A stretch of DNA of 64,000 nt from a virus (lineage: Duplodnaviria; Caudoviricetes): positions 224,001 to 288,000 of the IMG/VR virus record IMGVR_UViG_3300017700_000931. One strand, given 5' to 3'. Positions 9,835-13,730 of the stretch are shown here, piece after piece. Position 1 is the first letter of the stretch. Every line of letters starts with the position of its first letter. The position numbers were made by a program, and so were the translations under genes. Under the pieces are notes generated by a model, which did no database searches, was not told the origin of the DNA, and was given only the letters and a program-made list of their open reading frames with translations.

Positions 9835-10257
9835 TTATGCAACTTTTTCACCTATAAATTCATAACTAAAGCAGACCCTTTTATTGTCAACATAGTGATT
9901 CTTAAATAGATTGGTGTGATTCACATCGATTCTTAGCTTCTTATTTTTAGTGGTCGGTTTCCATAATGGAGAATGTTGCATATAATATCCCATTCTGGGG
10001 TGGGCCGCTCTAGAAAAGAACCTCTTACCTTCGTCAAGGTGTAATTGAGCACAAGCGTTAATAAACCTAACCCCGATACCCAAGCCTTGATAATCAGGTA
10101 ATATGACAACCCTATGGCCACGCCACGCATTTTTAACATATCCAGTTGGCATTGCAATACTGGCTAAAAAACCAACCACATTACCGTTCCATGTGGCAAC
10201 ATAACATCTGGTCGCAACATGTAAGTCATCATTTAAATAATGATGCTCTTTAAACAT
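9835..10257 (-). CDS. GNAT-family acetyltransferase (C-terminal part of a probable frameshift fusion)
   Basis: HRVVILPDYQGLGIG acetyl-CoA binding motif. Confidence 0.85.
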   Translation of the reverse strand: MFKEHHYLNDDLHVATRCYVATWNGNVVGFLASIAMPTGYVKNAWRGHRVVILPDYQGLGIGVRFINACAQLHLDEGKRFFSRAAHPRMGYYMQHSPLWKPTTKNKKLRIDVNHTNLFKNHYVDNKRVCFSYEFIGEKVA

Positions 10258-10922
10258 GGGCCAGATACTGCGATTTGCTCTATGTATTTGGAGATTGATT
10301 TCTGGTCGGACAAAAAAAAACCATCGTAGATTTCTCCATTATTAGCATTTATTACCCAGTCCGGTTCTAACCAATCAATCACATCATCATGACAAGTAGC
10401 AATAACCACGTTTTTTATATTATTTTTTTTAATGTATTTTGAAAGAGATACTGATGCAGCCTTCGCTACATTTCTATCTACAACCGACGTGAATTCATCC
10501 AATACTGCATTGTCTTTAATTTTTCTGGCTAAATCGGCCCTAAATTTTTCACCATTGGATAACACATGGTATGGTTTATACCAACTTGGGATAGTATTCA
10601 ATCCAACGGCACCTAATTTATTTATAGCTTCATCTGGCGTATCAAAATGAGACATGATGGATTTATTTATTTCCCAGCTAGGTTGTAATTCTTGACCAAA
10701 TTCATTCAATAGGGTACTTTTTCCAGAACCACTGGAGCCATAAATAACGCCAATATTAAATTCAGATGGTAATAGTTTTGGTTTTTCCCATGGGAAGAAT
10801 CTTGAGGTTCCGTCAAAAGTACAATCAAATGCTTTCTCACTAGCCATGATAAACTCATCCTTTTCAACGGACGAAGTTAGTGGTATTAGTTGTTTTGATA
10901 ATTGTTCTATGATATTCCTCAT
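10233..10922 (-). CDS. Soluble ABC-type ATPase
   Basis: Walker A GSSGSGKS, signature LSNGE, Walker B LDEFTS, switch ATCH; no TM partner nearby. Confidence 0.9.
   Translation of the reverse strand: MRNIIEQLSKQLIPLTSSVEKDEFIMASEKAFDCTFDGTSRFFPWEKPKLLPSEFNIGVIYGSSGSGKSTLLNEFGQELQPSWEINKSIMSHFDTPDEAINKLGAVGLNTIPSWYKPYHVLSNGEKFRADLARKIKDNAVLDEFTSVVDRNVAKAASVSLSKYIKKNNIKNVVIATCHDDVIDWLEPDWVINANNGEIYDGFFLSDQKSISKYIEQIAVSGPCLKSIII
10312..10320 (-). other. Candidate -1 slippery site (U9) joining the ABC ATPase to the GNAT
   Basis: GGT TTT TTT TTG; the -1 frame reads FVRPEINLQIHRANRSIWP-MFKEHHYL. Confidence 0.65.
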
Positions 10923-11537: not shown

Positions 11538-12131
11538 TTATTTACATATTTTATCAGCCCCCTTTGAAGCAGCATAAGCATCCGGTTTAATTTTGCTCTC
11601 CCAACCCATACCAATGATATAACCAATCGCATCACCTAATGCAACATGTGATTCATATCTTGGGTCTGGATTAATATCAGCATGTATTTCCATAGTGATA
11701 CCATATAAATCAAGTAATGGCCAAACCTCCAAACCAACTTCGATAGATGAACTAACTTCCCTCAACATCCGTTGATTGATTATTTCAATCTCTCTATGTT
11801 TTTTCTTATTGGTTGTCGCTCTCATTTCTTCCCAGAAAGTTGCACCAATGACCATTGCACCCCTACCGGAGTAGATAGGAACTTTAGTTTTTGTCCCATC
11901 CCAGTTTTTCTTATACTCAAAACCCATATGCTCTCTAGTCTCAACAACTATAGCAGTAGCGAATTTATATCCCTTACCAGCTTTTTGTGAGTCAGTACCA
12001 ATACATACTTTAAGTTCAAAACCCTTTTCAAGTTCTGCTTCAAAAAGTCTTTCTAAATAATCAACTAATGGTTCTTCAATAGGACCATGGTTTACTCGTT
12101 TCCATTTCATAATATGTTTTGTTTTAAGCAC
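11538..12131 (-). CDS. RNase H-like YkuK-family protein
   Basis: CIGTDSQ, FATAIV, RMLREV, EIHADINPD, AYAAS.GAD motifs. Confidence 0.8.
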   Translation of the reverse strand: MLKTKHIMKWKRVNHGPIEEPLVDYLERLFEAELEKGFELKVCIGTDSQKAGKGYKFATAIVVETREHMGFEYKKNWDGTKTKVPIYSGRGAMVIGATFWEEMRATTNKKKHREIEIINQRMLREVSSSIEVGLEVWPLLDLYGITMEIHADINPDPRYESHVALGDAIGYIIGMGWESKIKPDAYAASKGADKICK

Positions 12132-12187: not shown

Positions 12188-13645
12188 CTACGCTTCAACT
12201 ATATCTGACAACATAGCTGATGGTAAAAGTCTTTTTAATTTTTTATAATTCTTCTCTCCAATTTCAGCCTCTCTAACTGAAATTCTATAAAGTTTTCCAC
12301 CTCTACTCATATCCAACTGCCCAATTTCTTCTGGAATATCAGTAATCTTGTTACCAACAAGATTTAGGAATATCAAACTTTTACAATCACCAATTTCTTT
12401 TGGTATTGACGTTAATTTGTTTTTGGGAACTGACAATACTTCTAACTTAGGTAAGCTAAACATACTCGGATTTAATTCCCTCAGAGATGTCTCCCCCAAG
12501 TAAATGGTTTCAACGTTTTTAAATCTAGACAAATCAGGTAATTTTGGTATCTCTCTCTTTTTAAATCTTATTGTTGGTTGGTCCACATCTTGAATATCAA
12601 ATAAAATATCCGTAAAACCAAACGAAATTAAATAATCAATGTAAAAATTCTCATTTAAATTTCCATTAAATGCTTTCGCTAATGGCGTTAGTTCTTCGTA
12701 GAAGAAATTTGATAATGCTTCACTCTTCGAAAGAATCGAATCATAAATATTCTTATTGGCACCATTACTTCTATCTCTCAACTGTTTGCTTTCAAAATGG
12801 ATTTGATACATCATATCGTTCGGAATAGAACTTGTATCAAATTCACCATTTAAAAATCTGTTATCTATGATAATATATATTCTAGATTTATTTGAAATTG
12901 GTGTTTTATAATTAGTGTAACTATCAAACATACCATTACCTTGTTTAGTCGTACACCAACTAGCAAACCCATCAAACAAAACATTAGCATCCCTAGTTAA
13001 TGGAATAAATAATGTGAAATTTCTATCTCTAACTGGCATCAAAGCATGTCCGGCATCAACAAAACGCTTCATAGCTCTTTCAAAATCTGATGCATCTCGC
13101 TCAATAAACGGGTCAACCGAATCAAAGAGTTGTGCTAGGTTTTGATATTGATTGATATTTGTGGTATCAGTCATATTTTTAAGAGCGTAGTTTGATTCTG
13201 TTAATTCTTTGAACAGACGTTTACGTTTGTTGCTATCAAACAACTCTAGATACTCATTAGCTTGCGGTAAATCTTCAGCACCAAATCTAATTGCGTCATC
13301 AATCTTACCATCCTTAATCAATCTAGTGAAAACAGTTAACATCCACTGTAAGTAGATTTTATTAGGCGTTGGGTCAGCCGCAATCATTGCGGCAAAAATG
13401 TCCTCATGGATTCTTACAGTTTTTCTAACCCTAGATTTATCCTCATTAGTAATGATTGTATCAAGGATAGCAAGTGTTTTCTTGGTCATAACACCCATAT
13501 GAGTGTCAGTGTGGTCAGCTACTTCAATTTTAGTAATCTCACGACCTTCATTAGTTAATGATTCAACAATACCATTCATTTCTTCTTCCATGAATACATT
13601 GTATTTATCAGCCAAAAATTCTATCCTCTTTTCAATCTTTACCAT
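12188..13645 (-). CDS. Leucine-rich-repeat protein with an N-terminal WCT-motif domain
   Basis: C-terminal LRRs (LEVLSVPKNKLTSIPKEIGDCKSLIFLNLVGNKITDIPEEIG); FASWCTT; start placed at MVKIEKRI. Confidence 0.8.
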   Translation of the reverse strand: MVKIEKRIEFLADKYNVFMEEEMNGIVESLTNEGREITKIEVADHTDTHMGVMTKKTLAILDTIITNEDKSRVRKTVRIHEDIFAAMIAADPTPNKIYLQWMLTVFTRLIKDGKIDDAIRFGAEDLPQANEYLELFDSNKRKRLFKELTESNYALKNMTDTTNINQYQNLAQLFDSVDPFIERDASDFERAMKRFVDAGHALMPVRDRNFTLFIPLTRDANVLFDGFASWCTTKQGNGMFDSYTNYKTPISNKSRIYIIIDNRFLNGEFDTSSIPNDMMYQIHFESKQLRDRSNGANKNIYDSILSKSEALSNFFYEELTPLAKAFNGNLNENFYIDYLISFGFTDILFDIQDVDQPTIRFKKREIPKLPDLSRFKNVETIYLGETSLRELNPSMFSLPKLEVLSVPKNKLTSIPKEIGDCKSLIFLNLVGNKITDIPEEIGQLDMSRGGKLYRISVREAEIGEKNYKKLKRLLPSAMLSDIVEA

Positions 13646-13702
13646 AACAATCTTTTTGCAAATATACAAAGAATTATTTAAATAATCAATATAATGACAA
13701 AA

Positions 13703-13730
13703 AAAAGGTGCAACCATGGTTGCACCTTTT
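13703..13730. terminator. Perfect palindromic terminator
   Basis: AAAAGGTGCAACCATGGTTGCACCTTTT. Confidence 0.8.

Follow-up and report, generated by a model that had tools for sequence, protein, structure and literature searches.

In tailed phages, the tail assembly chaperone gene G/GT carries a conserved −1 frameshift through which a short protein and a C-terminally extended one are made in a fixed ratio. The phage gene considered here, which encodes an ABC-type ATPase and a GNAT acetyltransferase in two different frames, differs from G/GT (a frameshift mentioned in PMC5009743) in that the latter is a structural-assembly gene, usually uses heptamers rather than nine-base runs, and has a non-catalytic extension. 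A further parallel is dnaX, which in Escherichia coli undergoes −1 ribosomal frameshifting at A_AAA_AAG with a hairpin and in Thermus thermophilus transcriptional slippage on a nine-base run (PMC5009743). As with the tau and gamma products of dnaX, the ABC-GNAT gene would yield two proteins with a common N-terminal ATPase in a set ratio from one gene, and in both cases lineages use either a heptamer plus hairpin or a nine-base homopolymer (PMC5009743). The gene family is unrelated to dnaX, and here it is the shift that would lengthen the product, by an entire enzymatic domain; both types of signal are found within a single shallow phage clade. The slippage tract of mxiE is also a T9, to which one extra nucleotide is added. 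In Shigella flexneri, transcriptional slippage fuses the two mxiE ORFs (PMC5009743), and as in the ABC-GNAT gene the extended product is joined from two frames; mxiE, however, is a transcription activator, and slippage there has been shown by experiment, whereas for ABC-GNAT we infer it.

According to Iyer et al. 2021 (PMC7824862), a GNAT coupled to an ABC ATPase was predicted to acylate a DNA base, the modification itself being uncharacterised; DNA-base acylation by the ABC-GNAT enzyme is taken here as a prediction from the literature only. The in-frame genes of PHROG 11143, such as Nonlabens phage P12024S gp24 and Aeromonas phage PX29 gp085, share the domains, their order, the linker and the motifs with our gene; these are single ORFs, whereas the clade described below needs a −1 shift and would also make an ATPase-only product. 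A literature search found no published description of a T9 frameshift site in an ABC-GNAT gene. Annotation pipelines list the two parts of the gene separately, one as an “ABC transporter ATP-binding protein” and the other as a truncated acetyltransferase, and a widespread phage enzyme is therefore mis-described in hundreds of genomes.

The query gene lies on the minus strand of the window (the whole 64-kb stretch of DNA that was analysed) and comprises two ORFs, an ABC ATPase and a GNAT. The 0 frame opens with an ATG at 10922 and closes with a TAA stop at 10235-10233; this ORF (10922-10233, minus strand) encodes 229 aa, of which residues 1-203 form the ABC domain and the rest a 26-residue tail. 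The listed GNAT ORF (10257-9835, minus strand, 140 aa) is in frame −1 relative to the ABC ORF. Between the two domains lies a run of nine T’s (U9 in the mRNA; 10320-10312, minus strand, appearing as A9 on the plus strand), which the 0 frame reads as GAT GGT TTT TTT TTG TCC (..DGFFLSDQK..) before reaching its stop 26 codons on. Two slippery heptamers on the same strand, U_UUU_UUU (10320-10314) inside the run and U_UUU_UUG (10317-10311) overlapping it, are both in phase with the 0 frame, as programmed ribosomal frameshifting (PRF) would demand. The −1 frame is blocked by two stops six codons upstream of the run and is open from the run on, continuing through FFFVRPEINLQIHRANRSIWP-MFKEHHYL into the GNAT ORF and ending at 9835; its translation from T9 onward is FFFVRPEINLQIHRANRSIWPMFKEHHYL. 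A −1 shift at T9 gives a 362-aa product composed of residues 1-203 and the −1 segment (10314-9835, minus strand, base 10314 being read twice), which consists of a linker (GNAT strand 1 plus helix 1) and the GNAT domain. The junction peptide of the fusion is ..DGFFFVRPEINLQIHR and that of the short form ..DGFFLSDQK. Over 10311-10233 (minus strand; 26 codons plus stop) the 0-frame tail and the −1 linker overlap and both frames are coding; the ATG of the 140-aa ORF (10257-10255, minus strand) is probably an internal Met rather than a start.

Several lines of evidence bear on whether this is one gene or two. The ABC ORF matches Pfam ABC_tran with 27 bits (cut-off 25) and covers positions 37-195 of the 357-position PHROG 11143 profile (E 6.6e-62), while the GNAT ORF alone covers positions 217-353; when the linker is added, the GNAT-side match reaches back to position 200 and rises from 112.8 to 137.8 bits, and only after the −1 shift is the C-terminal GNAT (PHROG 11143 positions 200-353) colinear with the ATPase. 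The ABC domain conserves the Walker A, LSNGE signature, Walker B and H-loop expected of its family, and the GNAT domain the QGLGIG acetyl-CoA motif and the HHYL motif. In the annotated phage homologs PX29, P12024S and VmeM-32 the gene is a single ORF of 379-392 aa, with which the linker in the −1 frame aligns residue for residue, and a protein search over 1.8 billion representatives (E <= 0.001) returned 2748 relatives, mostly in frame and 350-400 aa long, together with short 230-aa representatives. For L066, a relative whose fusion is naturally in frame, the AlphaFold model (pLDDT 94.5, pTM 0.89) has the ABC domain stopping at the slip site and the linker making up strand 1 and helix 1 of the GNAT fold; because of this the 140-aa GNAT ORF would be an incomplete domain, and the −1 shift is the only route to a complete one. 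In the same model, the residue equivalent to the ATG of the GNAT ORF sits within GNAT helix 1; this ATG is replaced by CTG, ATC and GTG in L036, L068 and L014, and the position is Leu or Ile in the in-frame homologs. The model of the short product is confident over residues 1-203, with a tail of pLDDT below 50 that is predicted to be disordered. Searches for a more specific identity gave general matches: the GNAT part matched only Acetyltransf_1 (E 3.7e-8), Acetyltransf_7 and Acetyltransf_10 in Pfam, with no specific link to Mom found; among the 50 PDB matches listed by Foldseek, all were either nucleotide-binding domains of ABC type or generic GNATs, and the name Mom did not occur; matches in NCBIfam and PADLOC were of the generic P-loop/ABC sort and far under the cut-offs, and a sequence search of the PDB gave only ABC domains. 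Taken together, the profile matches, the alignments and the predicted structure confirm the two ORFs as halves of one PHROG 11143 gene.

A preliminary description of this DNA had proposed much of this from the letters of the window. ORF translation bears out its coordinates, its −1 offset and the peptide it quoted at T9, and its background on ABC-ATPase-GNAT proteins and the predicted acylation of DNA bases agrees with the literature (PMC7824862). Its central claim, that an ABC ATPase and a GNAT are parts of one gene which a −1 slip at U9 connects into a fusion of ~362 aa, holds, the site being conserved in about 60 diverged relatives. The linker, which it took for the true N-terminal strand of the GNAT, has that place both in the in-frame homologs and in the AlphaFold model of the in-frame relative, and is homologous to fused relatives, as judged from the gain on the PHROG 11143 profile and from PX29, P12024S and VmeM-32. 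The alignment of homologs that it called for finds the distant relatives fused in frame and the close ones split at a conserved T9. The DNA-modifying, anti-restriction role that it suggested for the enzyme is a putative one.

A scan of IMG/VR yielded 80 loci, 66 of which share 63-80% amino acid identity and come from about 60 metagenome datasets. In 58 of these 66 related jumbo-phage loci, T9 is present and the GNAT follows in the −1 frame, joined at the identical nucleotide; the remaining eight comprise one T8, four that have no run and keep the same −1 offset, and three T10 forms that are in frame. More distant viral relatives are in-frame fusions, and so are 77 of the 80 relatives from assemblies of prokaryotic genomes. 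In a protein tree the frameshifted forms make up one clade (SH-aLRT 91), within which the T10 in-frame forms (L064, L066 and L067 in IMG/VR) are nested at two separate places. In these T10 variants the former 0-frame tail, now in the +1 frame, is still open and has its stop at the same position.

Conservation at the site exceeds what the protein asks for. The GGT codon and three TTT codons at the run (GGT TTT TTT TTT) never vary among the distinct sequences (46 of 46) even though synonymous alternatives exist, and all nine T’s, including those at the free third position of Gly and the third position of Phe, are unchanged, whereas fourfold sites elsewhere in the gene average 1.4 bits. Positional variability peaks at the third positions of the 0 frame upstream of the site and at those of the −1 frame downstream of it. 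Across the overlap, third-position entropy at codons for conserved amino acids is 0.42 compared with 1.05 elsewhere (Mann-Whitney p 1.1e-5), and this dip in synonymous variability is confined to residues 194-235 and stops at the 0-frame stop. The 0-frame tail is 26 codons long in all 63 frameshifted loci, with a conserved sequence of roughly LSDQKS.SKYI.Q....G.CLKTITI, and the GNAT part is under normal purifying selection. Since the loss of synonymous variation coincides exactly with the 26-codon overlap, both frames appear constrained, as would be expected were both products made, and part of the constraint could reflect an RNA signal rather than dual coding. Comparison across the relatives shows the site, the offset and both frames to be under selection.

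Seven distinct relatives lack T9: four have A_AAU_UUU in phase with the 0 frame (L062, L069/70, L086/87/92 and L209), two G_GAU_UUU (L010 and L208) and one U8 (L056). All seven carry a 10-13 bp hairpin of −14 to −24 kcal/mol that starts 6 nt past the heptamer. In alignment A5, which combines these seven with L005 (a T9 sequence with a hairpin), 86.5% of cells are paired compared with 25-38% when the partners are slid, six pairs have changed on both sides in a compensatory manner, one pair is seen as AU, GC and CG, and the covariation score is 0.374 against 0.163 when shuffled. Because polymerase slippage needs longer runs than T4-T5, the shift in the short-run relatives can only be ribosomal; judged by its heptamer, 6-nt spacer and hairpin, it is classic −1 ribosomal frameshifting. 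In the protein tree, the heptamer-plus-hairpin forms lie at the base of the clade, beside the query gene. The lone U8 member, within the crown of U9 forms, has a rebuilt hairpin in which 12 of 13 positions pair, and L005 keeps a strong hairpin alongside its T9. That relatives with a heptamer and hairpin make the same shift indicates real recoding rather than sequencing error, and the pairing of two architectures, a short run with a hairpin and a T9, is, as far as we can see, new.

With these comparisons in hand, simpler accounts of the split can be considered. Homopolymers are error-prone, and the real run might be a T10 within an ordinary in-frame fusion; this would require about 60 independent metagenome assemblies to have given T9 in error, and it has no answer to the non-homopolymer relatives that need the same −1 shift, to the conserved tail frame with its fixed stop, or to the fact that just 2 of the genome’s 19 long runs interrupt a reading frame, so that we regard it as exceedingly improbable. 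It might instead be supposed that there are two independent genes or a decaying one, with the ATPase acting alone and the GNAT either translated from its own ATG at 10257 or dead. An ATG with a 140-codon ORF does exist, gene callers list the halves separately, and short 230-aa representatives are on record. Against this, the 18 codons that separate the run from the ATG show protein-level conservation in the −1 frame and match the in-frame homologs, the ATG is swapped for CTG or ATC in some relatives, the GNAT ORF alone would be without strand 1 and most of helix 1, and the purifying selection on the GNAT part is not that of a dead gene; such an arrangement is highly improbable. That 58 of 66 loci have retained T9 together with the −1 offset excludes both an assembly artefact and a dead gene. 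The preliminary description had also raised heritable phase variation, in which slippage during DNA replication would toggle the gene between T9 (split) and T10 (fused) and so switch the enzyme on or off. Changes between T9 and T10 do occur, as T10 is seen in 3 of 66 loci at two places in the tree, but T9 prevails in 58 of 66 independent assemblies, the same −1 offset is kept in relatives that have no homopolymer to toggle, and the 0-frame tail and its stop are conserved; this alternative is accordingly disfavoured, and we consider it very unlikely.

For programmed recoding, the question is which machinery would carry it out at T9. In the query, the region downstream of the run holds a degenerate remnant of the hairpin (10307-10259, minus strand, with arms at 10307-10295 and 10271-10259) in which 8 of 13 positions pair, at about −5.5 kcal/mol, and a single-sequence fold of the region has a z of −1.8. 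Among 45 T9 sequences (the query included and L005 set apart), the hairpin columns pair at 60.0% compared with 60.5% when shuffled, with no covariation, and the alifold consensus over the T9 set is −4.4 kcal/mol, again with no covariation. A covarying structure 5-9 nt downstream, as PRF would lead one to expect, is found only in the eight relatives of A5 and not in the query. Selection on the hairpin is seen only with runs of fewer than nine.

We propose that the locus is one soluble ABC-ATPase-GNAT acyltransferase gene split by a −1 recoding site at its domain boundary, where standard decoding would give the 229-aa ABC ATPase with its conserved 26-residue tail and a one-base shift on T9 the 362-aa ATPase-acetyltransferase fusion. 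RNA polymerase would slip on the nine-T tract such that part of the transcripts gain one U (U9 to U10), and −1 slippage of ribosomes on U_UUU_UUU or U_UUU_UUG would be a possible second contributor. To this reading, programmed recoding that would depend mainly on RNA polymerase slippage in the query genome and on ribosomes in the basal short-run relatives, we assign a probability of roughly 0.52 on the strength of the comparisons above; the chance that polymerase slippage is the main route at T9 is a little over one half. A run of about nine bases is the length at which bacterial RNA polymerase slips efficiently, and E. coli ribosomes shift poorly on U_UUU_UUU (PMC5009743), although the E. coli data on U heptamers may not hold for the host of the query phage. 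The run at the query site reaches this length of about nine and is conserved beyond coding need, as transcriptional slippage would predict. Polymerase slippage is favoured by the dispensability of the hairpin in the T9 set exactly at a run of nine, by the invariance of all nine T’s, by the T10 in-frame variants that still have an open tail frame, by the U8 member that has its hairpin restored inside the U9 crown, and by the genome-wide depletion of long runs. The genome (362,532 bp, 32.7% GC) contains 19 A/T runs of at least nine, about threefold fewer than the roughly 58 expected under a first-order model, and shows no depletion of runs of 7-8, which is consistent with selection against slippage-prone tracts. 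Only 2 of these 19 lie at a frame change between two long ORFs, namely the T9 site and a run at 2592-2601 of the window, and the earlier suggestion that slippery homopolymers are used repeatedly in this genome comes down to these two sites.

The strongest competitor holds that the same recoding and products arise mainly or only through −1 ribosomal frameshifting on the tandem heptamers, whose double slipperiness would replace the lost hairpin. Both T9 heptamers are in phase with the 0 frame, tandem heptamers would also account for keeping all nine T’s, the seven relatives with A_AAU_UUU, G_GAU_UUU or U8 have a covarying hairpin 6 nt downstream and include the forms that diverge basally in the clade, beside the query, and L005 combines T9 with a strong hairpin; because the short-run relatives establish ribosomal frameshifting for the gene family, parsimony could favour it at T9 as well. 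What counts against it is that the selected downstream structure is absent from 45 T9 sequences, that U_UUU_UUU shifts poorly in E. coli and that a nine-base run corresponds both to the length of the RNA polymerase hybrid and to the slippage threshold (PMC5009743), and that the tail frame stays open in the T10 variants, where it is beyond the reach of −1 ribosomal slippage. We hold this account to be a substantial though minority prospect, and the polymerase and ribosomal routes may work together, with the same protein sequence resulting from both.

As to purpose, recoding with polymerase slippage as its main route would likely serve to fix the ratio of ATPase-only to ATPase-GNAT subunits, and the two kinds could come together in ATP-sandwich dimers; that short and long subunits might form mixed dimers is drawn by analogy from the way ABC ATPases dimerise. 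Conservation of the ATPase-only product suggests that the enzyme works as a mixed assembly, and this should guide any attempt at its reconstitution. A more ambitious version of the proposal, which we regard as doubtful, is that this clade of roughly 360-kb phages has switched machinery from heptamer plus hairpin to polymerase slippage on U9, the hairpin decaying at nine and being rebuilt at eight, that distant members converged on the same solution independently with A9-A10, and that the ATPase-only product, with its conserved tail, is a required partner subunit of an asymmetric, ATP-driven acyltransferase acting on nucleic acid. The distant members in question are L108 (1980-2030; a contig of a Marinilabiliaceae MAG) and L195 (1790-1840; a 160-kb viral contig), which at 39-43% identity carry A9G/A10G runs at the same domain boundary (GTA AAA AAA AAG and CAA AAA AAA AAG, respectively) with the GNAT in the −1 frame and a junction of ..KKKV..RP..; since closer relatives of both are in frame, it seems that recoding evolved at this boundary on more than one occasion. 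The clade offers a natural comparison of two recoding mechanisms used for one purpose, and the finding that hairpins are weaker where runs are longer amounts to a testable statement on when polymerase slippage can replace ribosomal frameshifting.

Some further observations concern the surroundings of the site. A Shine-Dalgarno-like stimulator upstream of the run (GGAGA/GGTGA, 12-17 nt before it) was considered and is not claimed, because it coincides with a conserved Gly-Glu pair whose third position varies freely. A second homopolymer, at 10423-10430 of the window, is A8 in the mRNA sense and falls in Lys/Asn codons of the ABC ORF; it seems not to be conserved, the consensus run of the relatives being shorter there. 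Upstream of the gene lie an RNase H-like protein (11541-12131, minus strand; PF04308, E 6.5e-24) and a 509-aa protein with leucine-rich repeats at its C-terminus (12191-13717, minus strand); the neighbouring genes (RNase H-like, LRR and SLT-like) have no evident tie to the ABC-GNAT gene and are uninformative on its function. The run at 2592-2601, which is the 2.6-kb site of the preliminary description, is T10 on the plus strand and A10 in the sense of the minus strand, and is located between two long minus-strand ORFs, with one frame open for 830 nt upstream and another for 1122 nt downstream.

Tenacibaculum phage pT24 (NC_049383; L003:1800-1910), a literature example of the ABC-GNAT family that is annotated as two CDS, was examined as a second split case and set aside, as its break is an in-frame TGA within the GNAT domain with no frameshift. 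This TGA (..WNGVPV*INV..) occupies the position of a Gly or Ala in the relatives and could be a nonsense mutation, an error or a site of readthrough. Finally, a T9 frameshifted ABC-GNAT gene with 67% identity to that of the window is also present in L100 (PLXT01000052.1), a 103-kb contig labelled Methanobacterium sp. MAG that probably derives from a phage and ended up in an archaeal MAG during binning.
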